The translations under genes and the position numbers were made by a program. From positions 1 to 50,914 of the IMG/VR virus record IMGVR_UViG_3300046167_000433: 50,914 bases of DNA. One strand, 5' to 3'. Position 1 is the first letter of the stretch. Each line of letters begins with the position of its first letter. Below are positions 11,595-50,914 of this stretch, in pieces. This DNA is from a virus (Duplodnaviria > Caudoviricetes). Below the pieces are notes generated by a model. It was not told the DNA's origin. It made no database searches and saw only the letters and a list, made by a program, of their open reading frames with translations.

Positions 11595-12008
11595 ATGTCT
11601 GACCTAAACGTACAAAATCTCAACAGCAAGACAGGCAACTCAGCGATCTCTATTGCTGATAACGGCACTGTCTCGTTGTCTACTGCGGCGTCTGGTTCCA
11701 CCCAAACAGCTAACGCTACAAACTCGACAACTCTGGACTTCAGCACCTATCAGAACTTTGTTTTGACGCTGACAGGTAACGTCACGCTGGCTAACCCCAC
11801 GACTGAGGCAGTAGGGCAGTCAGGTTTCATCGTGATGATTCAAGACGGTACTGGTGGACGTACTGTGTCTCTTGGTACTGACTACGAGACTGCTAATGGA
11901 GCAGGGCTTACCCTGTCTTCTGCCGCAAGCACTACAGACATTGTGCCTTACGTTGTTGCCGCAGGTGGTCGCATCTTGCTTGGCGCGGCACAACTCGCGT
12001 TTGCGTAG
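11595..12008 (+). CDS. Tail fibre-associated protein
   Basis: NFVLTLTGNVTLANPT..GQSG.I..IQDGTGGRT. Confidence 0.7.
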   Translation: MSDLNVQNLNSKTGNSAISIADNGTVSLSTAASGSTQTANATNSTTLDFSTYQNFVLTLTGNVTLANPTTEAVGQSGFIVMIQDGTGGRTVSLGTDYETANGAGLTLSSAASTTDIVPYVVAAGGRILLGAAQLAFA

Positions 12009-26202: not shown

Positions 26203-29200
26203 GTGCGCGTAAAATATCGCAGAGGCGACAGCAGAAACTTTCAAGAAGAGCAGGATAAAAGCTACCTTTCAGAATTTACTTCTGGATTTTCCTCTGGGGT
26301 TGATACAACCCTTGGAAGCCTTGGTGGTGTTCGCTCTCTTTTCAACTCTATAACTGGAGATGAAGAAGAGGCAATTGAGTATCTGAACTACGCTCAGAGA
26401 AAGTTTCAAGAGGCAGGCGAATCCAGCGGCACGGTTACCAACATCGAGGATATAGACGGGGCTTCCGACTTTGTTCGATGGGCCACCTATTCGGCTGGCA
26501 CCATCCTGCCTTCCATCGCGACCAGCATTGCTGGAGGCGGCATTGGTGGCGCTGTAGCGCAGGGCGTAGCGAAGAAATTTACAAAAGATCGAATACAAAG
26601 AGAGGTTAAAGACGCGGTTGAGGACAAGGTTTCTGAGCGCGTAAAGAAACGAATTCTTAGAGAGACGCTTGACGCGGATACCGCTGGATATAGAACGCTT
26701 GGACAGGCGGTCGGAACCTTTGGAGCTTCTGCCGCGCAAAACACAGGCGGCACCTTCGTAGACATATACGAAGAGACAGGAATAGAGGCACCTGATGTAG
26801 CACTTGCGGCGGGGGTTGCCGCTGGCGCATTAGATTCTGTTTTACCGTTTGTCGCCCTCAAGAGAATAATGCCGGATACGGTATTTAATAAGTTCAAAGA
26901 TGGGGTGGCAGACAAGCTCGTTAAGAATGGAGGCGTTACTCGCCGCGTTCTTTTGCAGGGCGGTTTGTCTGCTGGAGCCGAGGGCATCACAGAGGCAGGA
27001 CAAGAGCTTATACAGGCGACTGCTGTGGGGATGATGCGGAACGACCCCATGGGAGGATATGCAGAATACTTCGATGAGTTCATCAAGAACGTCAATAATC
27101 CAGATGATCAGTTAGTTAGTCGCCTTCTGAATGCGGCGGCAGTTGGAGCTATTGGCGGGGCCGCTACAGGAAGCTTTACGGGTGCGCTGAACCGCAAAGA
27201 GAATAGAGTCGATGACGTTAGGGTTGATAGAGAACCCACTACCGACACTGTCGAAGAGGATGCTCCGGATGGAGCAGAGACGGTTCCTGATGCAAATGAA
27301 GTGGATCCAGAGACTCAATCTATACTTGAGGCCGCTCGACAAGATCAGCGTGATGCTCGCCGCAAGGCTCAAGGCTTTCCTCAATCTATGCCTGACATTA
27401 CAGACAGAGACGTTGATGCTGAGACTGATGCGCGTGTAGGTGAAGCGCAGGTCAGACAAAGAGCGGCGGCGCGCAGAGCGCAAGGTCTACCAGAGCAGGC
27501 AGTAGATCGAGAAACAACATCTCCAGAAGAGGCTCGGAATGCTCGATACGAAACAGACTTAAACGAGTCTCTTCGCAGATCTTTGAGAGCTAGAAAGGTT
27601 GTTAATGAAATCATTCCTGCTTCTATTTTTGAAACGGGAGACGCCACGCCTGAAGAGAATGCACTCGCCGCCAAAGAGGCTGAGAAGTTAACAGTTATTC
27701 CGAGCGGCCCGACTATTGAGCTTGGCCCTGATCGAACCATGGAGTCTTTAGAGCGAAGCTCAGTAGATTATCAGGGCATTGAGGGCACTCTTACCCGACG
27801 TGAGGATGGTGTCTACGTTGTCGTGACGCCGCAGGGTGATCAGGTTGTAGTGGAGAGCGGTGAATCTGACGCCGGATCTACCGCCGCTACTTTATTAGGT
27901 GTAAGGCCGAAAGATGTTGAGGTCAATACTCCGGACTCAGAGGCTCAGTACAACGCAGACGACGACACCTTTGTGGCTCGCGGAAAGACTTATCGCTATA
28001 TAGATACTCAGCGCAATAAAGACGGTGAGGCCGTTGCGATTAACGCGGAAACCATGAACGGCCAGCCGCGTGTGTTTAGAAGCAAGCGAACCGTTCAGGC
28101 CGTTGAGGCGGAGCGAGCTAGGATACAGCAGGAGTTGATGACTCAGGACTTAGCCACTGGGCAGGCGCAGTTCGATGACTTATCCGATAAGTTACAAATG
28201 GCTGTATTCGACCAGAGGGAAGCTCAAGGTCTGGATACAACCATAGATGAAGTTACGATTGAAGAAGTTCAGGCCGCAATTGCGTCCTCTCCAGCCGGAA
28301 TTCAGTCCGCTCTTCAGCAAGAAACGGAAGCTCTTTTCAGTAGAACTGATCAGACTGAATTTGATGTTCGACAAACCTTTGATGCGGCAGACCAGTGGCT
28401 CTCTTTTGAGGGGGATGTGGTCAACGCTAATCAGGAAACTCTTGAGTCTCGTCAGGACAGGATCGATGTCCTTGCTGGACAGCCTACGAAGCCAGCAAAC
28501 AGCGACGACCTTATAACAATACGGGCAATCGAAGGCATAGCCGAAAAGATTGCAGATGCTATGCGCCGTCCTACGTTTTTCAACGAAACAGTAGACGGCA
28601 AGCAACAGAATGTCGAAGCAAAACCAATGGATAGCCTTGGGGATGCCGACACGATAAACGAGATTCAGCAATCGATATTCGATCTTATCGAAGCTGGTCT
28701 TCCTGTAGATTTTGTAAGCCAAATACAGGCTCTGGCAACTCACTCTCCTGCCCAGTCTCAGGGACTTGGTGCCACGGTTTCAGACAGAATGTCTATTGAA
28801 TCCAGTTTAGTATCCCAATCTACTACAGATGCTAATGCTGACAGAGAGTTGAGATATGTATTAGCGCATGAAGCGTGGCACGTTCTCGACAACGCTAATG
28901 ATATTAGCGGCCAGTTGCCATCATTCAATGCAGAAGTCGTCTTCAGCGGCGAGGGGCCGAAGGTTGTTTTGGGTGATGCAATTGCAGATCTCTACGAAAA
29001 CTACCTCCAGAAGACTGAGTTGGGGCGTAGATTTACCTACCCGTTTAATGAGATTGAACAGCAAGCTGGCCCCGCTACAAACGCAGAAGACCTTGCGGAA
29101 TTTATTCGCAAGGAGTCTTTCGCTCAGCTTGGTGCGGTATACCTAAGCAACCCAAAGTTACTTAAAGAACAAGCGCCAGAGGCGTACAATGTAATTCGCA

Positions 29201-32200
29201 CTATTCGGGATAACCCGACACTTGCGACTGGAGAGAATGATGCGAGAGTTCAAGATACCAACGTCGGAGTACAGCCCGAAGGTACAGGAGTACAGGGAGA
29301 AGTTCGGCCATCCACCGTCAGCGGAAGCGCTGAAGTGGAAGCGGACGGAGGATCTGGAGAAGCTGGCCTCGATGGCGCTCAAGCGGGGCAAGCCAATCAG
29401 GGAGTGGGCGGAGAGACCCAACAAGAAGCTGGGGACGGTGACGGATCTACTCTACTCCAAGAGCGAGTAGACGAAACCCCAGAACAGGGGAGCTTGTTTG
29501 CAAGACGCTTAAATAAAAAGCCTTCAAAGCAAGAGCAGTCTCGCCGAGACTTTATTAAGAAGATGGCTACAGTCGCTGTCGTCTCTGGATCGGGTGTAAA
29601 AGGAACGTCTTACTATACTGAGATCGCCTCAAATCCAGATCTAGTTCGCGGCAAGGCTAAGCCAATCTCTAGCTTCGTACAGCGCTCACTCCCTGAAGAG
29701 TCTGTATCTGCGTTCGCGTTTGGAGATCTGCCTAAAGCCATAGACATAGCGGTCGAAGGAGCGCCGCAGGACGTAATTGCGCTCGCGGAAAAAATCAAGG
29801 CAACCCTGCCAAGCCAAGATCTGTATGACACAGACGTACAGCGCGGGTTGTGGAATGTCGCAGGCATGGTCAGCATGGAAGACAAGCCGACCATATCAAT
29901 AATGCCAGATACGAAAGACTCTGGAATGACCGCAACCTTGCTTCATGAGGCGATGCACCTCGGAATTGCGGCTAGATATAGATCATTAAGCACTGCCGTC
30001 TCATCTAGAAATTATGAGCTACTGGGCATGGATCAGCCTAAAGCAAGAGAGGCTTTAGATCAGTGGTATAGCTTGTGGGGCGAGTTTAGAAGAGCGGCCA
30101 ACCCAAATCTTCAAAATTCAAATGTTAAAAACCTTCCTCCTGAAACTCGTATTGCGTATGGAAAGCCAGACGAGTTTTTTGTCAGGGCTTTAACTCAACC
30201 AGAATTTCAGCAACAGCTCCATGATTTAAATTACGAAGGTAAAACATTTCTTTCTAAATTTAAGGACTGGGTAAAGAAGTATCTGTTTGGCCCTGATACT
30301 GGTGTACAGCCAACATATCTCGATGCGGCACTAACGGCGGCGAATGATTTGCTCGATGCGTCCATGCTAGATAGCCCAGATTTCACGTTCATGAAGAACG
30401 TCAATATTAACCTTGCGGAAGAGAGAGGCGGCACACAAGACGAATCCGCAAATCCTCCTACCCTGTTTGTTAGGCGTCTTCTTAAAGGACTGTCAGATCA
30501 AGAAAGTCAGGCAGAGGCATCGACCCTCTTATCTGGAGAAGAGTCCCTACAAGTAGAGGTCACCGGAAAAAATAATCGGCGCACAGTAACCGACGTTTCT
30601 CGGGCGCTGGACACGAGAACTTTACAAATTTTCGGTAGAACTCTCGCTGATCGAACAGACGAGAATGCTGAGATAGTATCAAATATTATGGCGGCAGAGG
30701 CAGAGTACGCTCTGTCTAGAGACGGCAATGCTGGGGAGTGGTATCAGCAGAAAGTCGCTAACGCAATGATGATTGCAGAAGAGGTATTTCCAGACCTCAA
30801 GGACAGCCCCAATCAGCAGGCTATGTTTAAAGCCGCTCTTGCGATCACATCTAACGGTTCGTCTGTAGATGAAAACTCAGCCAACACAATCAATAAAGTT
30901 TTCGGAAAGTATATAGAAACCGGAAAGTTTCCGATTGTTGGGTATGGCAAAGAATCTCCAACCATGAAAAAGAGCTTCAAGCTCCTTAACGTCATGATTG
31001 AGGAGATGGGGCTGGACAATGTAAGAGAGTTTCTTTCTAACGACTTTACTGTGCGTGAACTTAAAGCGGCTGGCTTTTCGGTAAACGGAGAGGGTGTCGA
31101 TACGGTTGTAAAGGGAAGCGCCATACTCGGCCCAAAGATCGGACAGGGGTTTTATCAAAACCTTCAGGCTAACTACAACACCCTGACAATGGATCTTTGG
31201 TACATGCGCACTTGGGGCCGTATAAACGGCAACCTGATGTCGGACTCTGACAGAAAGTTTCCTGAATCTCTGCAAAAGTTTCGTGAAGCAGTCTTGGAAA
31301 ACGAGAAAGCCAGACTCCGAAAAGAAGGCATAAATGTTTCTGACTTCAAAAAAGATGACGAGGTCGCTACTGACCTTGCCGTAAAAATGAACGGTGAATT
31401 TGCTCGCGGCAACTACAAGAACAAGACCCCAGCAAACAATGCGGCGAGAAACCTAAAGAACGCTACAAAGGCACAAGAAACTCCTCGCGGATCTCGTGAA
31501 CGAGAGTACATGCGCAAGGTAACTAGAATGGCGGTGGACAAGCTCAATGCGGCCACCGGAGAGAACATAAACACAGCGGCATTTCAGGCTTTGATCTGGT
31601 ATCCTGAGAAGGATCTTTATAACAAGCTGGGAACCCCGAACAAGAAATCGGAGCCAACAGATTATGAAACAGAATTCGCAAAAATCGCCAAAGAAAGAGG
31701 CGTCAGTGAACAGGCAATATCGCGAATCCTCGGACTGGAGCAACAGTCCGGAGCAGGAGGAGTTCAACAAGACTCTCGAAGCGATGCCGGAATCGAAGAT
31801 GCGCCTAGCGGCACAGAGCCTCAGCAAGCTGATGAAGAGCAAGGGTTAACAGAAGCTACTGGAGTCGCTGGAGAAGGGCAACAGCTAGACTCCAATGCAC
31901 CAACATCATTCGTAAAGAGACTTTCCGGCCAGACAAAATCATACGACGACGCTCGCAATGATGGGACGCTGATGGATGGGAAGCCGTCTACCAGCGAGTT
32001 CAATCTGGATGACGAGACCCGAACCGAAGCGGTCATTCGGAAACTTCAAGACAAGTACCTACCCCTTAAAAAGTTTGAGGAGAAATCCGCAGAGTTCTTG
32101 GGGCTGAAGGAGCTACCAGAAAGATTCCGAACCTATATCGGCGAGACACTGCACTCAGGAAAGGTCAAGGACGACAACGACCGTCTTGAGCAGAATTACA

Positions 32201-34731
32201 TAAGGCCGATTGGCACAATACTGCGAGAAAACAGCATCGACGTAGATGACTTTGGCATCTATCTAATCGCTAAACACGCGCCAGAAAGAAACAGTTACAT
32301 CGCAAGCATTAACCCCGCGATACAGGAGGCGGGATCCGGCATGTCTAATGCAGACGCTGAGCGGGTTATAGCTACGTTTGAATCAGACGGCACAGCCAAA
32401 GCCATGAATGAGGCGGCTGACCTTACCTACAAGATGCTTGCAGAAAACCGCAAGAGGCTGACTGAGTCGGGTCTCGTTGACGACGATACGGTAGACGGCT
32501 GGAACCAGCAATATAAGTTCTATGTGCCCTTAAAGGGTTTTGCGGCGTCTTTGGATGAAGACAATAATATAGTGGCACCGAAAGGCTTGCCCAGAGGTTT
32601 TAGCATCTCAGGTAAAGAGGTCTTGGCCGCTCTCGGCAGAACCACGCAGTCAGACAACCCCTTACTTTATGCGATGAACGATGTTGAAAACAAAATCGTC
32701 AGAGCCAGAAGAAACGAGGTGGCACAAAGATTCCTCGGCCTTGCTAGGGAGCTAAGCGGTAAGGGCAGTAAACAGCTAACGGTTTATGAAGACCCCGCAT
32801 CATTCCCCATGGACAGAGAAAGATCCGGTAGCCAAGTCCGCGAAAAACGCATGGATGCTTTTGACATGCGGGATGCCGTAAGAAAGGAGGATAACAAGCC
32901 ACGATTCCTATCGGTCAAAGAAGACGGCAAAGAGATCTTTATCGAGATCAAAGATCAGGCTCTCAACAACGCAATGCATAACGTAAGCGCTGAAAACTTT
33001 GACAGCCTTGTCACGTTCCTTGGCCAGAACATGAACTTTCTTCAGAAGTTTCAGATATGGAGACGTAACACGCTCATCAACTACAACCCAAGTTGGTTCC
33101 TGATTAACCCGCTCCGCGATATACAGACTGGCATCATGTACACGATGTCAGAAAGTAGTAAGTCAGGCGGCATGATTGAAGGAGAGGCAATAACTGGCGA
33201 CATCCTCGCCGGATACTTTCCAGCCGCTCGCGCTTACTTCAAGAACCTGCGTGGCGGAAGGGTAGACTCAGAGCTAGACGAGTACTTTGATGAGTATCAG
33301 GCTTCTGGCGCACCGACTGGACTGACGCTGACAAGAGAAATTGATGAGCAGAAAAAGCGGTTAGAAAATATTATTACCGAGGGCAACCTAGTCTCTAACA
33401 TAAGAAAGGTCGGTGACCTTGTGCAGGACTTAAACACGGCCTCTGAGAACACGGTTCGCTTCGCCGCTTACGTTGCGTCAAGGCGCAATGGTGTGGAAGT
33501 AGAGAATGCCGCTAATCTTGCTAAAAATATGACGGTGAACTTTAACCGCAAAGGAGAGATGTCTGCTGGATTAAATGCTTTCTATCTTTTCTTTAATGCG
33601 GCGGTTCAGGGTACGGCAAACATAGCCCAAGCTATGACCGGAAGGACAGAATCTGGAGGACTTAACAAAGCGCAGATGGCGGCTGTAGGGATCGGCCTGA
33701 CCGCTTACATGATTACAGAACATAACATTCTCGGCGCAGAAGAGGACGACGATGGCGAGTCCCTTTACAAAGATCTGACCGGATACGACAAGCTGATGTC
33801 ATGGAACATTGTGCGGCCAGACGGGGAGAGCTTCTTTCAGATCCCCATGCCTTACGGATATGGAATGTTTCACACCATGGGGCGGCTCTCGGCAGAGTTA
33901 GCTCACGGGCTAATAGATGAAAACGACTTTGCGGCAGAGATCACTGCGGCAAGTGTTCATCACTTCCTACCTCCGCCCCTTGGTTTTGTTGGGGCTGTTG
34001 GCACCGAAGATGATTTGATGGACTTTACCTCTCGGGCAGTGATCGATCTTGTCCCAGACATCATTGAGCCATTTGCATCTTTGTCGGCCAACATGAACCA
34101 CTTTGGATCTCCGATTTATCTTGAGCAAAACTCCCTAATGGATTCGGCCCCTGACTCATCCAAGTCAAAGCGATCTACCGAGAAGGTATATAAGGAAACA
34201 GCGCAGTTCCTTAACGAAGTTTTTGGTGGATCTGAGTTCAGAAAGGGCGGCGTGGACTTGTCTCCGGATGCCATCAAGTACGCAACCGAGTTTGCTACCG
34301 GCGGTCTAGGCAGGTTCATCAGCAGGTCTTCTGATGTAGGAATTCTGATGGCCAATGAGATAGAGAAGGATGATCCGTCATTGGGGGAATTTCCAATCCT
34401 AAGATATTTTGTCGGTGAGCCGTCTCAGTTCTCGGACAAGGTTGAGTATTACGAAGGCATTAGAGATCTTCAGGAAGTATTCAATGAAGCGGAGGCCTCG
34501 ACTGGAGATGATCGCAGACAATTCTTAGAGAAGTTTGGGGGCAAGGTCAGACTTGAACCTCTGTACAAGCAGACCCAAAAACAGCTTCGTGCATTACGGC
34601 AGAAGAAGAAGTCCATTGAAAAGATGCAGTCGGATCCGGCAAGAGCCTACGATCAGATTCAAAGAATAGAGGCCCAAATGGATTTGCTGTTTGATCGATT
34701 TAACAAGAAATATCGAGAGGCTAATAAATGA
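26203..34731 (+). CDS. Giant polyvalent ejection protein: two HExxH zincin modules, HhH-like module, C-terminal LPD38-like domain
   Basis: 2842 aa; HEAWH (28867), HEAMH (29944); GPKIGQGFYQNL...TMDLW; AKNMTVNFNRKG...FYLFFNAAVQG. Confidence 0.8.
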   Translation: MRVKYRRGDSRNFQEEQDKSYLSEFTSGFSSGVDTTLGSLGGVRSLFNSITGDEEEAIEYLNYAQRKFQEAGESSGTVTNIEDIDGASDFVRWATYSAGTILPSIATSIAGGGIGGAVAQGVAKKFTKDRIQREVKDAVEDKVSERVKKRILRETLDADTAGYRTLGQAVGTFGASAAQNTGGTFVDIYEETGIEAPDVALAAGVAAGALDSVLPFVALKRIMPDTVFNKFKDGVADKLVKNGGVTRRVLLQGGLSAGAEGITEAGQELIQATAVGMMRNDPMGGYAEYFDEFIKNVNNPDDQLVSRLLNAAAVGAIGGAATGSFTGALNRKENRVDDVRVDREPTTDTVEEDAPDGAETVPDANEVDPETQSILEAARQDQRDARRKAQGFPQSMPDITDRDVDAETDARVGEAQVRQRAAARRAQGLPEQAVDRETTSPEEARNARYETDLNESLRRSLRARKVVNEIIPASIFETGDATPEENALAAKEAEKLTVIPSGPTIELGPDRTMESLERSSVDYQGIEGTLTRREDGVYVVVTPQGDQVVVESGESDAGSTAATLLGVRPKDVEVNTPDSEAQYNADDDTFVARGKTYRYIDTQRNKDGEAVAINAETMNGQPRVFRSKRTVQAVEAERARIQQELMTQDLATGQAQFDDLSDKLQMAVFDQREAQGLDTTIDEVTIEEVQAAIASSPAGIQSALQQETEALFSRTDQTEFDVRQTFDAADQWLSFEGDVVNANQETLESRQDRIDVLAGQPTKPANSDDLITIRAIEGIAEKIADAMRRPTFFNETVDGKQQNVEAKPMDSLGDADTINEIQQSIFDLIEAGLPVDFVSQIQALATHSPAQSQGLGATVSDRMSIESSLVSQSTTDANADRELRYVLAHEAWHVLDNANDISGQLPSFNAEVVFSGEGPKVVLGDAIADLYENYLQKTELGRRFTYPFNEIEQQAGPATNAEDLAEFIRKESFAQLGAVYLSNPKLLKEQAPEAYNVIRTIRDNPTLATGENDARVQDTNVGVQPEGTGVQGEVRPSTVSGSAEVEADGGSGEAGLDGAQAGQANQGVGGETQQEAGDGDGSTLLQERVDETPEQGSLFARRLNKKPSKQEQSRRDFIKKMATVAVVSGSGVKGTSYYTEIASNPDLVRGKAKPISSFVQRSLPEESVSAFAFGDLPKAIDIAVEGAPQDVIALAEKIKATLPSQDLYDTDVQRGLWNVAGMVSMEDKPTISIMPDTKDSGMTATLLHEAMHLGIAARYRSLSTAVSSRNYELLGMDQPKAREALDQWYSLWGEFRRAANPNLQNSNVKNLPPETRIAYGKPDEFFVRALTQPEFQQQLHDLNYEGKTFLSKFKDWVKKYLFGPDTGVQPTYLDAALTAANDLLDASMLDSPDFTFMKNVNINLAEERGGTQDESANPPTLFVRRLLKGLSDQESQAEASTLLSGEESLQVEVTGKNNRRTVTDVSRALDTRTLQIFGRTLADRTDENAEIVSNIMAAEAEYALSRDGNAGEWYQQKVANAMMIAEEVFPDLKDSPNQQAMFKAALAITSNGSSVDENSANTINKVFGKYIETGKFPIVGYGKESPTMKKSFKLLNVMIEEMGLDNVREFLSNDFTVRELKAAGFSVNGEGVDTVVKGSAILGPKIGQGFYQNLQANYNTLTMDLWYMRTWGRINGNLMSDSDRKFPESLQKFREAVLENEKARLRKEGINVSDFKKDDEVATDLAVKMNGEFARGNYKNKTPANNAARNLKNATKAQETPRGSREREYMRKVTRMAVDKLNAATGENINTAAFQALIWYPEKDLYNKLGTPNKKSEPTDYETEFAKIAKERGVSEQAISRILGLEQQSGAGGVQQDSRSDAGIEDAPSGTEPQQADEEQGLTEATGVAGEGQQLDSNAPTSFVKRLSGQTKSYDDARNDGTLMDGKPSTSEFNLDDETRTEAVIRKLQDKYLPLKKFEEKSAEFLGLKELPERFRTYIGETLHSGKVKDDNDRLEQNYIRPIGTILRENSIDVDDFGIYLIAKHAPERNSYIASINPAIQEAGSGMSNADAERVIATFESDGTAKAMNEAADLTYKMLAENRKRLTESGLVDDDTVDGWNQQYKFYVPLKGFAASLDEDNNIVAPKGLPRGFSISGKEVLAALGRTTQSDNPLLYAMNDVENKIVRARRNEVAQRFLGLARELSGKGSKQLTVYEDPASFPMDRERSGSQVREKRMDAFDMRDAVRKEDNKPRFLSVKEDGKEIFIEIKDQALNNAMHNVSAENFDSLVTFLGQNMNFLQKFQIWRRNTLINYNPSWFLINPLRDIQTGIMYTMSESSKSGGMIEGEAITGDILAGYFPAARAYFKNLRGGRVDSELDEYFDEYQASGAPTGLTLTREIDEQKKRLENIITEGNLVSNIRKVGDLVQDLNTASENTVRFAAYVASRRNGVEVENAANLAKNMTVNFNRKGEMSAGLNAFYLFFNAAVQGTANIAQAMTGRTESGGLNKAQMAAVGIGLTAYMITEHNILGAEEDDDGESLYKDLTGYDKLMSWNIVRPDGESFFQIPMPYGYGMFHTMGRLSAELAHGLIDENDFAAEITAASVHHFLPPPLGFVGAVGTEDDLMDFTSRAVIDLVPDIIEPFASLSANMNHFGSPIYLEQNSLMDSAPDSSKSKRSTEKVYKETAQFLNEVFGGSEFRKGGVDLSPDAIKYATEFATGGLGRFISRSSDVGILMANEIEKDDPSLGEFPILRYFVGEPSQFSDKVEYYEGIRDLQEVFNEAEASTGDDRRQFLEKFGGKVRLEPLYKQTQKQLRALRQKKKSIEKMQSDPARAYDQIQRIEAQMDLLFDRFNKKYREANK

Positions 34732-35534: not shown

Positions 35535-36022
35535 GCGGCCTCCTGCATTGCCGTAGCTCTAGGGTTCACCAGACGGCTTCTGAGGATGCGATAGAGGTCT
35601 CTCCATCCTTCCCCATGGGCCTTGCGGTACTTCGTCTTCAGCCACCGTGTGCGCGGCCCCCAGTGGTGCTGGACGTGGTGCGCCACTTCATGTGCAACGA
35701 CGCATAGCAAACGGTTCTCAACGTCGCCGCAGTCCATCGACCCGATCACTGGATCGCCTGCGAAGGCTTTGTACTCAGACATCTGTGACGTCCCCCTGCG
35801 CAAAGACCAGAGGTCAATGGTGATGCCCTTGGCTCCGCCGTATGATGCTTGCCCGCGATGCTTAACGTGGACGCTACACATGCGCTTCATCTGCGTGTAG
35901 GTGGCTGGGATCTCATGCTCAGCCTTAGCCAGTTCACGCAGGCAGAGGTCTGCCATTTTGCGAACCATCTTGGCTTCAGCCTTGGTCACGTTGTCGCTGT
36001 GCGATAGTTGCTTGCCCCTCAT
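35531..36022 (-). CDS. SprT-like zinc metallopeptidase
   Basis: VVAHEVAHH...HGEGW motif. Confidence 0.7.
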   Translation of the reverse strand: MRGKQLSHSDNVTKAEAKMVRKMADLCLRELAKAEHEIPATYTQMKRMCSVHVKHRGQASYGGAKGITIDLWSLRRGTSQMSEYKAFAGDPVIGSMDCGDVENRLLCVVAHEVAHHVQHHWGPRTRWLKTKYRKAHGEGWRDLYRILRSRLVNPRATAMQEAA

Positions 36023-45556: not shown

Positions 45557-46057
45557 ATGGGATATTCAACCGGCAGTGCCTACAACTCGACAACAATTTT
45601 GGAGGATGGGTCTGGTCAAGACACTGGATACATGGGTGAAAAGGCGTTTCAAGAATGGCTTTTGTATAACCGATTTGCGTTCACTTCCTGTGGTTCTGAA
45701 GTCGATCATTACGACTTCATTGTGCATCTCAAGTATCGCGACATCACAGTCGATGTGAAAACCAAAAAACGAAATGTGCCTTACGACCACGACCTGTTTG
45801 ATACCCATGTTAACGACACTCAAATGCACTTCGGTTGTCAGCTTTATGTCTTTGGCAGTCTCCACGGTGACGTAGTGCATTTTGGTGGATGGATAGCAAA
45901 GAAGAAGTATTGGCAGAACTGTCAGCGAGTTAAGAAGGGACAGAAGACAAGCGGGGGACTTGTTGAAAAAAGAGACGGGGGAAAGATGAAGCACTCCGCT
46001 CTTAAAGACATGGAGTCTCTCGAAAAAATATTTAGAAAAATTGAGGCTATGAAATGA
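45557..46057 (+). CDS. PD-(D/E)XK nuclease-like protein
   Basis: G.MGE..F, YDF...VDVKTK. Confidence 0.55.
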   Translation: MGYSTGSAYNSTTILEDGSGQDTGYMGEKAFQEWLLYNRFAFTSCGSEVDHYDFIVHLKYRDITVDVKTKKRNVPYDHDLFDTHVNDTQMHFGCQLYVFGSLHGDVVHFGGWIAKKKYWQNCQRVKKGQKTSGGLVEKRDGGKMKHSALKDMESLEKIFRKIEAMK

Positions 46058-46320
46058 GAGAAAAACAAGCACTGAAGAAGCTTGAGTCTTATGTACTCAA
46101 GACTTACGGAGAGCATTACGCGAAGAACGGATTGCAGGCAATCGATCTGATCATCGCTAACGGTTACGGCATCGAACACGCCATGGCCTGCGTCATCAAG
46201 TATGCGTCACGGCTGGGTAAGAAGGAGGGGGCAGACATGGAGCATGACATCTTGAAAATCTGCCACTACGGACTGCTGGCCTTGGTTGCTCTAGAAAAAA
46301 ATGACGGCGGGAAAAAATGA
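46054..46320 (+). CDS. DUF3310-like protein
   Basis: HYA..GLQAIDLI, IKYASRLGKK, DILKICHY. Confidence 0.7.
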   Translation: MREKQALKKLESYVLKTYGEHYAKNGLQAIDLIIANGYGIEHAMACVIKYASRLGKKEGADMEHDILKICHYGLLALVALEKNDGGKK

Positions 46321-46601
46321 GAGAAAACAAATCACGATTCCACGGTCTCTTAAACCGCATGGGGGATATGAACGTCGTTACGTTTACCACTAAGGAGGCT
46401 GGGCCAATGCTGGGCATCTCCAAGGTCGATGTGAAGCTCCTCATTGAGTATGGCGTCAGCACGGGGAGGTTGAGGATGGCGCTCAGTTCGGGTGATTACG
46501 GAAGGACACACGCGCTCTATGAGCTAGTCAACTGGCGCACCAAGTGGATGAGAATGAAGTGGAGGAGCGACGATGGTCAACTCACGAACGAAGGGGCATA
46601 A
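46317..46601 (+). CDS. Hypothetical protein (possible winged HTH)
   Basis: Coupled ORF; FTTKEAGPMLGISK. Confidence 0.55.
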   Translation: MRENKSRFHGLLNRMGDMNVVTFTTKEAGPMLGISKVDVKLLIEYGVSTGRLRMALSSGDYGRTHALYELVNWRTKWMRMKWRSDDGQLTNEGA

Positions 46602-46974
46602 CTACGAGCGTGAGATCGTTCACGCCTTACGCGAAGAGCTAGGCACGATAGTCGATGAGCCGATCAAGCGGATCCTAGATCAGTATCGAGAGAACAGCTT
46701 GCCCGACATAGTGGTGGGGCCGTTTGCTATCGAGTGCAAGCGATACAGCCAAGGTTGCGTCCCGCATCGGGCGTGGTGGGATCAGGTGGTCGCGGCGGGA
46801 AAGGCTAACGACTTGATACCGGCGCTGGTGTATCGGTTCGACAGGGCCAAGACGCTTTGTGTCGTTCCGCTTTACGCAATCAATCCAGATCTCCCCAGAA
46901 GCACCGAGAGTAGGGCGACGATGGATTGGAATGACTTTGTAATGGTCATGCGAGAGAACCTTGCGTCCCCCTGA
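46573..46974 (+). CDS. Holliday junction resolvase (Hjc-like)
   Basis: SRTKG..YERE, PDI, IECKR, WWDQ, PALVYR. Confidence 0.8.
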   Translation: MVNSRTKGHNYEREIVHALREELGTIVDEPIKRILDQYRENSLPDIVVGPFAIECKRYSQGCVPHRAWWDQVVAAGKANDLIPALVYRFDRAKTLCVVPLYAINPDLPRSTESRATMDWNDFVMVMRENLASP

Positions 46975-47245
46975 ATTAAGGGCCGTTTACATGGAAGCGG
47001 CAAGGCACCTAACGTATCCTGAAATTAAGGCTCATATCCACGAAAAATTAAGCCCTCAATTTCATATACTTGCGATGCGTCTAGCCCTAATTGCGGTCAG
47101 TTCAAATATCGCAGATCTGTCAAGTCTAGAAGAACGGCGGCGAGTTCTAGATACTTATCCTGACTGCGACGGAGCGCTGGACGGCATTCGAGACGAGGTA
47201 AAACTCGGGGTGCAAAGACTCTGGCGGCGGCGCAAATCTAACTAG
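46961..47245 (+). CDS. Hypothetical protein
   Basis: Overlapping operon ORF. Confidence 0.55.
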   Translation: MRPPELRAVYMEAARHLTYPEIKAHIHEKLSPQFHILAMRLALIAVSSNIADLSSLEERRRVLDTYPDCDGALDGIRDEVKLGVQRLWRRRKSN

Positions 47246-47254
47246 GGGATCTTA

Positions 47255-47500
47255 ATGACTGAAGCCGCACGAATTCTTGAGCGGAAGGACAACGTCGTCT
47301 TTCTTCACCGCGAAGGCTGGAATTACTTTGATGAAACAGCCCCCGAGATCGAGGGCTGGTACTTGGTGACGGGAACGTCGGACGATGGTAACTGGTTCGG
47401 TTTCTTTGAGTTGGTCGGGGATAGTTTGTCGGGCGAGGTCGATGAACCTAATCCGTATCCCGTCGCATTTCTTCGAGTTCCAAATCCACCTTTATTTTGA
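47255..47500 (+). CDS. Hypothetical protein
   Basis: AGGGG RBS; PEIEGWYLVT. Confidence 0.6.
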   Translation: MTEAARILERKDNVVFLHREGWNYFDETAPEIEGWYLVTGTSDDGNWFGFFELVGDSLSGEVDEPNPYPVAFLRVPNPPLF

Positions 47501-47849
47501 GTAGCTCCAGCGCGTAGCTGGGCATTGTTCGATAGCCCTTGGATGATGGGTCTCTGAGCCAGTTGCGAACCGTTTCCAGCGGGGCATTGATCAGAAAAGC
47601 CACCTCATTGCGCGTCAGGGAATGCTTTTCAGTCATTCGCTTGAGTTCAATATTGTATTGACCAGAGCTATTCATATGCTCCTCTTTTGGAAAGTAATCT
47701 GCGCCAAATTTATTGTACAGGCGCAGGTATTTTCTTAGTCTATGTTCTGGAATGTTCTCCGTTACGTCAACCACGCACTTCCAAGGTCTGCCACGGGATC
47801 TTTCCTCCGCGACACGGGCCATCGTCTCCGAGCTTACCTTAGTAATCAC
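47448..47849 (-). CDS. HTH protein; in-frame internal start at 47675
   Basis: LTRNEVAFLINAPLETVRNWL HTH; GAGGAG RBS before MNSSG. Confidence 0.65.
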   Translation of the reverse strand: MITKVSSETMARVAEERSRGRPWKCVVDVTENIPEHRLRKYLRLYNKFGADYFPKEEHMNSSGQYNIELKRMTEKHSLTRNEVAFLINAPLETVRNWLRDPSSKGYRTMPSYALELLKIKVDLELEEMRRDTD

Positions 47850-48066
47850 GTCGGATCTCCTCCAAGCTCATGGGATTTTTGTGTTCCTCCATGGCCCTGC
47901 AAAAGCTATCCCATACCCACTTCAAGTTAGGATGCTCTTTGATCCAATCGCCGATGATAATCCTCTGAGCAGACCCCTTCTTGTAAGCTCGGTGATCGTC
48001 CGAGTAGGTGTACCAAAAGTCATGCTTTTTCAGCAGATCAAAAAACTGAAATTCTAATTCGTCCAT
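47839..48066 (-). CDS. Hypothetical protein
   Basis: AGGAGG RBS; LKKHDFWY.YSDDHRAYKKG. Confidence 0.7.
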   Translation of the reverse strand: MDELEFQFFDLLKKHDFWYTYSDDHRAYKKGSAQRIIIGDWIKEHPNLKWVWDSFCRAMEEHKNPMSLEEIRRDY

Positions 48067-48070
48067 GATG

Positions 48071-48163
48071 TCATCCTCCTACAATTGCTAATTCGTAAAA
48101 TAGAAATGAAAAATAAAGTGCGAGTGTTGCGGCAAGGGCAACCCACTGCTCTGGAATATTCAT
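48071..48163 (-). CDS. 30-aa single-TM peptide (not in ORF track)
   Basis: ATGA coupling; MNIPEQWVALAATLALYFSFLFYELAIVGG. Confidence 0.55.
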   Translation of the reverse strand: MNIPEQWVALAATLALYFSFLFYELAIVGG

Positions 48164-48381
48164 TGAATCGATCCTCCGTTTTCGTCTTCAAGAAAAGAGG
48201 AGATCTGTCCTAGCAGATCGACCCAGTCCTCGATGATTTTCTTTTGAACTGAATAGGGCATCTCCATGAAGACATCGTCTGGATCCAAGCACAGAAACCC
48301 GAATCCTTTTTCAACGTCAGCAATCAGGTGTCCAACCTTCGACTCTTCAACTGCTGATTCGTCAACCGTTACCATCTTCAT
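48160..48381 (-). CDS. Hypothetical protein
   Basis: Coupled ORF. Confidence 0.6.
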   Translation of the reverse strand: MKMVTVDESAVEESKVGHLIADVEKGFGFLCLDPDDVFMEMPYSVQKKIIEDWVDLLGQISSFLEDENGGSIQ

Positions 48382-48593
48382 TCGATCTCAATCCCTTCAT
48401 GCTCAAGTTCATCTAGCTTGGCACCAAGGTAGCGAATCATCGCGATTGCTTGCTCGATCTGTTTCTGATCTGAAGAGGTCTGCAATAAAAAAATTGCCTC
48501 GTCACCCAGCTTCTCGAACTGCCCTGCGGCGGTCAGTATTACTTCGCGCTCACTGTCACCACGCGCCGACTCAATATCGATTACGTTGCTCAT
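48378..48593 (-). CDS. Hypothetical protein
   Basis: Coupled ORF, MSNVID start. Confidence 0.6.
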   Translation of the reverse strand: MSNVIDIESARGDSEREVILTAAGQFEKLGDEAIFLLQTSSDQKQIEQAIAMIRYLGAKLDELEHEGIEIE

Positions 48594-48904
48594 GCCTCTT
48601 CCTCGTTAAAGATCAAATCGAATCCCCAATAGGTCTCGCAGTAGCCCCACGGCGGGATTATGCCGCCGCTAATAACCTGCATTGACTGTGAGACCCCCCA
48701 ATCTGCGGGGCCGCACTCCCAGATCACATGCCAGCCGCTGGTATAACCACGCTCCTGACTCTCCTCCGGCGAGTAGATCTGAACCTCATAATTGGGATCC
48801 TGATCTGCCTCGGCAGAGTCCATAACGAGCGCAAGGTAAGCCGTGTTTGCGGCGTCTTTTGCTGACTCGAATTGATGCCACTGAATTGCTTTGATGTGTC
48901 TCAT
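48590..48904 (-). CDS. Hypothetical protein
   Basis: ATGA coupling at 48904; VIWECGPADWG, YCETYWGFDL. Confidence 0.65.
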   Translation of the reverse strand: MRHIKAIQWHQFESAKDAANTAYLALVMDSAEADQDPNYEVQIYSPEESQERGYTSGWHVIWECGPADWGVSQSMQVISGGIIPPWGYCETYWGFDLIFNEEEA

Positions 48905-49137
48905 GACTCCAACTCCTCCAGCCCTTCCGGTATCGAACCGACAGCCCCTACAAAGCATCGATCCATCACCGCGATGTAGTCCGCAAGCTCCTGCTTCTGA
49001 GCCTTAGTCTCTATTGATAATGCGCACTGGACGTAGATGTCCTTGAAGACATCGTCCGGCTGGTGTCCTGCCTGCAAGAGCATCAAGATGCGATCCTGTA
49101 CGGACTGCTGTAAGTTTTCTGCGGCTAGTAATTTCAT
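48901..49137 (-). CDS. Hypothetical protein
   Basis: ATGA coupling at 49137 with GAGG RBS. Confidence 0.55.
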   Translation of the reverse strand: MKLLAAENLQQSVQDRILMLLQAGHQPDDVFKDIYVQCALSIETKAQKQELADYIAVMDRCFVGAVGSIPEGLEELES

Positions 49138-49631
49138 GACGCGAGTTCCTCTTCGATGTCTGAGATGATTTCGTTGCACAGGTTGTTGTCGGAGTAGTCA
49201 CTGATCACGCCCATGGGTTGATGCTCAAAGCCGTTGTTGTAGATCAGGCTGAACCAGCCGAGACCCTGACCGTCATTCATGATGATCACGTCACCATCTC
49301 CTGCGGCTAGGTTCTTGATGATCTCGGCGAGGTCGCTGGAGCGCTCGATGATTGGCTCGTCTTCCATCCAAATCGAGATGGGGTGACCGCGCTTCAGGAT
49401 GGCTTTGACTAGCGCCAGCAGGACGGGTCGCTCCCACTTGGGTGGATAGTTAGCACTTGACCAAGTCAGGTTGCGCTCTTTTTCCAATTGCACTTGAAGG
49501 TCTGCGGCATGAGCCATGCGCTGTAGCTCTGATCGAATGTCTCGCTTGCTCTCAAACGATCCGTTCTCAAGTACCGCCAGCATCACTGGCAACAGCGATT
49601 TCCAAGTTGGTGTTATGTCGATGGTTTCCAT
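49134..49631 (-). CDS. Hypothetical protein downstream of hammerhead (in-frame ATG also at 49709)
   Basis: METIDITPTW; C-terminal LIYNNG...VISDYSDN. Confidence 0.65.
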   Translation of the reverse strand: METIDITPTWKSLLPVMLAVLENGSFESKRDIRSELQRMAHAADLQVQLEKERNLTWSSANYPPKWERPVLLALVKAILKRGHPISIWMEDEPIIERSSDLAEIIKNLAAGDGDVIIMNDGQGLGWFSLIYNNGFEHQPMGVISDYSDNNLCNEIISDIEEELAS

Positions 49632-49657
49632 TTCAATTTCCAGATTGTTCGGGTGAA

Positions 49658-49720
49658 TTCCCGTGACCCGCCGAAGCGGGTTTCGACCAGTGTTCAACTG
49701 GTAGCTCATCAGACGGGGAA
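49658..49720 (-). ncRNA. Type I hammerhead ribozyme
   Basis: CCCGT-CTGATGA-G(CT)ACCAGT-TGAAC-ACTGGTC-GAAA-CCCGC-TTCG-GCGGG-TC/ACGGG; full catalytic core and three stems. Confidence 0.9.
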
Positions 49721-49981
49721 GTGGCGGTTACAGCGCTCGCGGAAATCTTCCTGCGCACCGTCCCATGTCATGTCGTAATGGCCCCAAGTGAAGCCGCTGG
49801 ATACCCAGAAGTAGGCGGCGGTGCCGTAGCGATGAGCCAAGCCTTTGTAGCTTCCCCCCCTGTCGAACAGCACTACTGCGCCTTCCTCATCCGACTCAAC
49901 GCGGACGATATTCCAGCCGTTGTATTTGGCCCAATGCTCAAGGTCAGCCATGCGGCCTATTGATTTGACTGATGCGTTCAT
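49709..49981 (-). CDS. Hypothetical protein
   Basis: GGAG RBS; GFTWGHY...A..DF.ER. Confidence 0.65.
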   Translation of the reverse strand: MNASVKSIGRMADLEHWAKYNGWNIVRVESDEEGAVVLFDRGGSYKGLAHRYGTAAYFWVSSGFTWGHYDMTWDGAQEDFRERCNRHFPV

Positions 49982-50082
49982 GATTCTTGCTCCATGTTGA
50001 CGAGGATTATTGGTAGGAGAGTGCAGACCAGAAGGCCGAAAACAATTAATCCAAAGGTGAGTAGTTGATCTTCTGAGTTCAT
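49978..50082 (-). CDS. 34-aa single-TM peptide (not in ORF track)
   Basis: Coupled at both ends; MNSEDQLLTFGLIVFGLLVCTLLPIILVNMEQES. Confidence 0.55.
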   Translation of the reverse strand: MNSEDQLLTFGLIVFGLLVCTLLPIILVNMEQES

Positions 50083-50914
50083 CACGCCGCCTCCTGATTG
50101 GCTTTCTTGAGTTCGGCTTTCGCCTGCTTGAATTCCTCGGTGACAGTCCACGGCAACCCGTAACGCTTCGCGCAGATCGGGCCGTAGCCGTTGCTGACTG
50201 ACTCGTTAGTGGTGAGATCGCGGGAGCAGAAACAGCAGTTGTTATGCTGAGCGCCGTGAGCCTTGGCGGCAGTCACAACGTCAGCGCCCACCTCGGCGAT
50301 GCGTTGCTTAACGTCATCCTCGACGCCTCGCCCCGCGAAGAACTTGCCCTCGGGTGTGATCTTGCCGAGGTAGTCTCGGTAACCGTAGGCGTCCTTCTCG
50401 CCCTTGACATAGACGTGGCCAGCGTTGCGTCCCGTGAGCAGGGTGCCAGAGAGAACAGCAGGTCTCCGGTGTTGACCTTGGGGCGCTTGATGCCAGCCTT
50501 GAGAGCCAGAGCAAAACGATCTAGCAGATCGCCCATATTGATCTGGGTTTGGGTGGCCTTCTGCTCGCGTTGCTTTGCCCAATCTTCCTCTCGGGCAATG
50601 GACTGATACACGGCTTGCAGTTGCTTCGGTGACAGGTCGCCCTTCTTCTTGACCTGCTCCATCAGGGACTCGTAAAAGTCGCCCTTTGCATTGGCGAGGT
50701 ACTCCAGCGCGGCAGGCTCCCGCTTGCCAAACTCTGCGACGTTCTCTTGCTTGCGTCGGATAGCCGCAGTAGCCGAGTAGGCGCGAGCCTTGAGCCGTTG
50801 CTCAGGGCTGGTCTTGAGTAGCCCAGTACCTCGGCACTTGCCGCACTCGACGGTTCTCCGGTTTACAAAGCCGTAGGTGTACCGGCCAGTGCCGTGACAG
50901 CGGTGGCACTTGTA
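50082..50914 (-). CDS. DnaJ-type Zn finger + DUF6011-domain protein, 5'-truncated by window; frameshift(s) at ~50431-50443
   Basis: CHRCHGTG...CGKCRGTG; LFSLAP|AHG|RNAGHVYVK; CCFCSRDLT..ESV..GYGPICA. Confidence 0.75.

Follow-up and report, generated by a model that had tools for sequence, protein, structure and literature searches.

A complete type I hammerhead ribozyme was identified at the junction of two genes on the minus strand of an uncultured, probably marine, tailed phage. The window, that is, the whole stretch of DNA that was analysed, is an entire IMG/VR virus record of 50,914 bases with an estimated completeness of 97%. We consider it likely that the element is functional in the leftward early mRNA of this phage, where its predicted transcription and self-cleavage would uncouple two cistrons. 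The argument for this reading is drawn from the ribozyme itself, from covariation in related viral contigs and from the genes on either side.

Identification of the Hammerhead Ribozyme

Read on the minus strand, positions 49717-49660 form a full consensus type I hammerhead with all core elements present. The 5' strand of stem I, CCCGU (49717-49713), pairs and covaries with the 3' strand, ACGGG (49664-49660), which would become the 5' end of the downstream fragment. The core segment CUGAUGA (C3-A9, 49712-49706), which is invariant except at N7 in the alignment A1 described below, is followed by stem II (49705-49685). This stem consists of the pair G49705-C49685 (G10.1-C11.1), a CU bulge (49704-49703) and an inner helix of six pairs (49702-49697 with 49691-49686) that is closed by the loop UGAAC (49696-49692). 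The 2-nt bulge after the first pair of stem II has counterparts of 1-2 nt at the same place in 11 of the 30 rows of A1. The core nucleotides G12, A13 and A14 (49684-49682) then lead into stem III (49681-49666), in which the pair A49681-U49666 (A15.1-U16.1) and five G-C pairs carry a UUCG loop; this stem covaries as well. C17 lies at 49665, and hammerhead numbering places the predicted scissile bond between 49665 and 49664 (C17/A1.1). Stem I is open and holds both the 5' and the 3' end, and stems II and III each end in a loop, which is the type I topology.

The core was compared with the list of nucleotides given in the Methods section of PMC3088659, and C3, U4, G5, A6, N7, G8, A9, G12, A13, A14, A15.1, U16.1 and H17 were all found to be present. 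A scripted pairing check indicated that 17 of 17 ribozyme pairs were valid. None of the pairs adjoining the core (U2.1-A1.1, G10.1-C11.1 and A15.1-U16.1) was mispaired, and the three stems comprised 5, 1 + 6 and 6 pairs, respectively. The earlier note had described a complete hammerhead core on this strand, a type I topology with a cut at 49665/49664, and a distance of 33 nt between this cut and the ATG at 49631. Every element was found at the coordinates assigned to it, the topology and the predicted cut agreed with the core positions and the numbering, and the distance was correct. At the level of sequence, the observation of a type I hammerhead in the window was confirmed.

Specificity of the Motif and Comparison with Rfam

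The motif was searched for using a lax descriptor, in which stem I had at least 4 bp, stem II at least 3 bp and stem III at least 4 bp. A single match was found in the window, with stems of 5, 7 and 6 bp, and only 1 of 300 dinucleotide-preserving shuffles matched. A simple core pattern matched the record once and the reversed control not at all. These sequence controls indicated that the motif is not a chance occurrence. The minimum free energy of the 81-nt stretch was ordinary (z = -1.16), with 25 of 200 shuffles folding equally well. No intrinsic terminator was recognized at the ribozyme: stem III is followed by UCACGGGAAUUC, which contains no U run, and a terminator scan was empty there.

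An Rfam comparison, which the earlier note had proposed as a check, brought no confirmation. No match was obtained for the whole window at the gathering score, and a search of 601 nt with E-values returned a weak RsmY match on stem III alone. In a search of 101 nt, RF00163 (Hammerhead_1) reached 12.2 bits (E = 2.7), below its gathering cutoff of 34 bits. This family has the same core and the same open-stem-I topology as the window element and differs from it in a stem III of four pairs that is almost loopless, so that the 3' strand of its stem I was set on the second half of the window's stem III. The failure is attributed to this minimal stem III of the model, compared with six pairs and a tetraloop here. 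Rfam also reported 0 hammerheads in ten related loci, although at least 27 were found there by the descriptor; since these sister hammerheads were missed too, we take the failure to reflect a limit of the model. That RF00163 passed over the window ribozyme and every one of the sister copies suggests that phage hammerheads of this kind are probably under-annotated in viral metagenomes.

When the window was searched with R1, a model built from A1, this hammerhead scored 72.6 bits and the next match 11.9 bits; with the filters off, R1 detected no second hammerhead in the window. The weak match, at 35537-35580 on the minus strand (E = 0.2), has stem I-like strands and a near-core CUGGUGA and lacks stems II and III. 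It is probably due to chance.

Covariation in the Wider Family

Viral contigs were screened with three pattern scans, each of which fixed a different part of the motif. With the core and stem III fixed, stem I had at least 4 bp in 30 of 30 unique matches, which comprised 14 distinct pentamers, and stem II had at least 3 bp in all 30. When the core and 4 bp of stem I were fixed, stem II had at least 4 bp in 23 of 23 matches and stem III at least five continuous pairs in 20 of the 23. In the third scan, which fixed the core and stem II, stem I had at least 4 bp in 78 of 81 unique matches and stem III at least 4 bp in 65 of 81. A MAFFT alignment of 30 sequences (A1) contained 88.2% paired cells, compared with 66.6% in shuffles and 30-42% in slid controls, and both sides changed in 18 of 22 pairs. 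Several bottom rows of A1 were misaligned and were nevertheless retained, which counts against the structure. Taken together, the scans and the alignment support covariation in all three stems and suggest that the RNA is under selection. The interpretation put forward in the earlier note, a type I hammerhead, draws support from its topology, its core positions and the covariation seen in every stem.

A 4-bp pseudoknot that was absent from the earlier note was found between UGAA of loop II (49696-49693) and UUCA (49657-49654), just 3' of stem I on the same strand. In A1, 71% of its cells were paired, compared with 52% in shuffled and 27-44% in slid controls. The third scan yielded a pseudoknot of at least 4 bp in 44 of 64 sequences and of at least 3 bp in 59 of 64, formed by many different sequence pairs. 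Judging from this covariation, the pseudoknot is the predicted tertiary contact between stem I and stem II, a type of contact that fast hammerhead cleavage requires. Pseudoknots had been reported in 2011 for all three hammerhead types, in passages of PMC3088659.

Relatives at the Same Junction

Related viral contigs were fetched using the two flanking proteins as queries. The ribozyme was kept between the same two genes in L005 and L006/L007, and it was found in the same context in L040 and L051. L009 has an identical copy of the ribozyme followed by an extra small ORF, and the L008 locus ends at the end of its contig. The ribozyme and its tail were 87.5-100% identical to those of five relatives, compared with 63-66% identity in 150 nt of upstream coding DNA and 53-84% in 170 nt downstream in the same five. 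The relatives also keep the ATG 33 nt past the cut, and they have GGAG at the place of the weak Shine-Dalgarno-like GGAA of the window (49641-49638, minus strand).

In L006, stem II is a different five-pair helix, which has no bulge, is 2 nt shorter and is formed by compensatory pairs. The core AUG of L006 is out of frame with the downstream gene (76 nt compared with 78 nt), which argues for selection on the RNA and not on the 191-aa frame described below. According to the earlier note, a core that was not conserved in related phages would have spoken against the ribozyme; in these relatives the motif was kept, and its stems were changed by compensatory substitutions.

In the seven distant loci L010-L016, similarity to the downstream protein was confined to its first 44-52 residues, and no ribozyme was found. 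L017 contains homologues of both genes, separated by a 13-nt spacer (TAA, ribosome-binding site and ATG), with no ribozyme at the junction, indicating that the element is dispensable for that gene pair. R1 found three hammerheads in the contig of each of the two closest relatives (L005/G001 and L040/G002) and one in the contig of L017. The three type I hammerheads of L005 and of L040 lie within about 1.8-2.5 kb of the same operon, and by synteny the next hammerhead of the window would be expected immediately past the record end at 50914.

Several minor features were observed in these contigs. The operon of L005 starts with an ArdC-like anti-restriction gene (PF08401 and PF18818), which lies upstream of the hammerheads. 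The third hammerhead of L005's contig (L094, 1501-1573) has a C at position N7 and one additional U separating A9 from the first pair of stem II; it was missed by the strict descriptor and scored 67 bits with R1. In the hammerheads at L005 1665-1729, L040 3687-3751 and L017 1611-1675, an AUG follows the cut directly and opens frames of 53, 447 and 57 codons, respectively. A ribosome-binding site lies further downstream in L005, which makes a leaderless start doubtful.

A blastn search of 49100-50500 against named phages gave no match. The best match of the terminase, in Roseobacter phage CRP-7, was 36% identical, and R1 detected no hammerhead in CRP-7 or MW202692. In prokaryote genomes, the stem I-anchored pattern gave only 4 matches, in Firmicutes and Bacteroidaceae MAGs, which were uninformative on the host.

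Flanking Genes and the Predicted Leftward Transcript

The hammerhead occupies a 77-nt gap between two co-directional ORFs. The upstream ORF (49709-49981, minus strand) encodes 90 aa of no known family, with a 68%-identical homologue in L017. It ends in F-P-V-stop, with the 5' strand of stem I formed by the final codons. The stop codon UGA (49711-49709), which the earlier note did not include, is at the same time U4-G5-A6 of the core, and a second in-frame UGA is located at 49708-49706. The downstream ORF (49134-49631, minus strand) encodes 165 aa from the ATG at 49631 and matches phrog_22670 and phrog_22565, both of unknown function. Sequence searches of Pfam, PHROGs, NCBIfam and PDB assigned no function to either flanking protein. 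A frame of 191 aa starts from an ATG at 49709, which shares one base with the upstream stop; within this frame, the PHROG alignment begins at residue 27.

The gene context was further analysed in 87 non-redundant contexts of the wider family. In 71 of them, the stop codon of a same-strand frame with 40 codons or more falls within the interval from 15 nt before to 1 nt after C3. The core UGA is this stop codon in 20 of the 87, as in the window, and the other 51 frames stop within 15 nt upstream. The next start codon lies at a median of 25 nt after the cut; such an ORF is present in 83 of the 87 contexts, and a Shine-Dalgarno-like motif precedes 54 of these 83 downstream ORFs.

From 50914 to 47448, the genes are small, close-packed and all directed leftward, and no function is known for any of those searched. 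A search of 46000-50914 returned no sigma-70-like promoter, and we therefore infer the leftward transcript from gene packing alone. Sequencing-run matches to the window came from only five runs, in small shares and all as contigs; gaps in their coverage do not count as evidence. Two contigs from a seawater RNA-seq library were identical to part of the leftward block (47797-48205); they document its presence in an RNA library, which is not proof of transcription, and this sole genuine RNA run matches only that part, away from the ribozyme.

Two overlapping ORFs in different frames at 50082-50914 on the minus strand match consecutive parts of phrog_4046, with the shift near 50433-50441. The second of them also matches DUF6011, and the homologue in L005 is one intact frame. 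The window has either a frameshifted gene or an assembly error at this place, and the gene is truncated by the record end at 50914. The rightward block contains a single ORF of 2842 aa (26203-34731, plus strand).

A Possible Product Hairpin

A further structure absent from the earlier note involves CGGG (49663-49660), which would be 5'-terminal after the predicted cleavage and which can pair with CCCG (49653-49650, minus strand), excluding stem I. This hairpin was present in both the minimum-energy and the centroid folds of the 3' product. Before cleavage, the energies of the two structures were nearly equal, with -21.7 kcal/mol for the hammerhead fold and -21.3 kcal/mol for the hairpin fold. 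When more downstream sequence was included, the minimum-energy fold favoured the hairpin over stem I.

We retained the hairpin solely in the subfamily with a long stem II, for loops no larger than 10 nt; there its partner varies along with stem I. A hairpin of at least 4 bp was formed in 18 of 27 sequences, compared with 28% of swapped pairs; counted by stem I type, the same set gave 8 of 11 (permutation 53/5000). The corresponding values in an independent set were 30 of 49 sequences, compared with 30% of swapped pairs, and 8 of 20 stem I types (permutation 126/5000). Over all 87 contexts, with a wide span and no limit on loop size, no difference from controls was observed. In the third scan, the hairpin partner overlapped the pseudoknot strand in many sequences. 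The comparisons lend moderate support to the product hairpin, as a tendency only.

Proposed Mechanism

In the preferred reading, the RNA would fold once about 60 nt have been made, and the pseudoknot between loop II and the tail would keep stem I alongside stem II. Self-cleavage would then take place after C49665. The upstream fragment would carry the complete 90-aa ORF together with its stop codon, and it would end in the hairpins of stems II and III with a 2',3'-cyclic phosphate. The downstream fragment would start with a 5'-OH and a 33-nt leader containing its own ribosome-binding site. Its 5' end may refold as the small hairpin, which would favour product release and hinder religation. As a net effect, the cistrons would be uncoupled and each mRNA would have defined, structured ends, similar to those made by synthetic ribozyme insulators. 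Cleavage would be constitutive and may affect stability or translation.

As a more tentative extension, which we regard as possible but doubtful, the subfamily could be a natural 'cleave-and-lock' insulator, with a stop codon in the core and a released strand that forms a 5' hairpin. The loop of this hairpin would be the former pseudoknot partner. On this view, a single module of 70 nt would close one message, give the next a protected 5' end and block religation; the terminating ribosome might also time cleavage.

Alternative Explanations

The main rival accepts a real ribozyme and turns it into a switch, in which a ribosome terminating at the core UGA, or the competing hairpin, keeps the hammerhead unfolded, so that cleavage would report translation of the upstream ORF. 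The stop codons within the core or up to 15 nt upstream of it (20 and 51 of the 87 contexts) are consistent with this explanation, but in compact phage genomes a stop codon is expected beside any intergenic element. The near-equal energies of the hammerhead and hairpin folds, and the preference of the minimum-energy fold for the hairpin over stem I with longer downstream sequence, point in the same direction; however, the energy model takes no account of the pseudoknot or the tertiary contacts, each of which favours the active fold. Regulated cleavage of phage hammerheads is raised in a passage of PMC3088659, but no ligand-binding or sensor element is visible in the window. We regard a switch as unlikely. 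It is quite improbable that the ribozyme is real and destructive, with a cut that exposes a fragment to host nucleases and lowers a flanking gene by glmS-type control. RNA with a 5'-OH is degraded in some bacteria, as by RNase J1 in the case of glmS in Bacillus, which counts for such control, and differing stabilities of processed transcripts are listed as a possibility in a passage of PMC6765202. However, both fragments are predicted to end in stable structure, the upstream fragment would retain its stop codon, and the downstream fragment would retain its ribosome-binding site.

We consider it very unlikely that the conserved 70 nt are a DNA-level linker for mosaic phage recombination, in which the ribozyme fold is a relic or inactive. 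A linker would agree with an element that is far more conserved than its flanks and has varied neighbours, such as the extra ORF after the element in L009, with a metagenome contig that matches 49639-49734 and then diverges, and with the absence of the element from the L017 junction. It would not, however, give compensatory changes in three helices and a pseudoknot alongside 13 invariant core nucleotides. Finally, the motif could be a chance resemblance in coding DNA, in which the 191-aa ORF from 49709 is real and the hairpins are incidental or a terminator. The ATG that overlaps the upstream stop and opens this frame, as well as the missing Rfam hammerhead call, fits such a reading, but the lax descriptor matched 1 of 300 shuffles, the PHROG homology starts at residue 27, the core AUG of L006 is out of frame, and stem III is followed by no U run, in a region where the terminator scan was empty. 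Contradicted by these results, the coding reading is hardly credible and was rejected.

Comparison with Known Systems

Phage hammerheads with pseudoknots between genes have been known since 2011, as described in passages of PMC3088659, and the window is a further example. The earlier note had stated that phage hammerheads are known and that their role is unexplained, which agrees with passages of PMC3088659 and PMC6765202, where the biological role of genomic phage hammerheads has been open since 2011 and transcript processing is proposed. Like the phage and prophage hammerheads described in parts of Perreault et al. 2011 (PMC3088659), the window element has a consensus core and a pseudoknot that would hold stems I and II parallel. 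The hammerheads of that paper also lie between phage operon genes, with several copies flanking single genes, and the window's relatives have three. The function proposed there, processing of long transcripts, fits the present reading of a ribozyme that uncouples two cistrons. The terms 'stop codon', 'ribosome' and 'Shine-Dalgarno' do not occur in the main text of PMC3088659, and so the core stop codon and the product hairpin are not discussed in it; the window's subfamily may already be listed in its supplementary alignments. A literature search for prophage hammerheads with a stop codon yielded nothing relevant among the papers listed, as judged by the title or the start of the abstract.

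For the HHphage ribozyme of haloviruses HF1/HF2, a transcript 5' end was mapped within three nucleotides of the cleavage site, according to a passage of PMC3088659. The same source describes this HHphage as a variant related to HHmeta (needing high Mg2+) that precedes the first ORF of the transcript. Unlike it, the window ribozyme has a consensus core and is located between two ORFs.

RiboJ of Lou et al. 2012 was reportedly engineered from a plant satellite ribozyme, and its body is said to stay on the downstream mRNA. In the window, by contrast, the catalytic body would stay upstream, and only the 5 nt of stem I and the tail would go downstream. The likeness to RiboJ-type insulators lies in a hammerhead followed by a hairpin ahead of the ribosome-binding site, with a normalised 5' UTR, as described in part of PMC7536230, where uncleaved mRNA is modelled as faster-decaying. 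The comparison with RiboJ concerns how the element works and not family membership.

The locus provides a compact test case, with one consensus ribozyme at a defined two-gene junction. Contrasts are offered by L017, with the same gene pair and no ribozyme, and by the close relatives, whose operon carries three copies. Two features point to specific mutants, namely the core stop codon and the competing hairpin of the product.

Two further observations were made in the viral contigs. A second large subfamily (L027, L029, L038, L052 and others) is characterised by a short stem II and by stem I strands of 6 bp, frequently terminating in TAA or TGA; no pseudoknot was evident in it. Its hammerheads occur in 4-5 copies per contig at a spacing of about 260-1300 nt and bracket single small genes. 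In addition, a Pistol ribozyme (RF02679) was detected at positions 11753-11820 on the minus strand of L109, with 62.6 bits compared with a cutoff of 34.5 bits, and the same viral contig holds a type I hammerhead.
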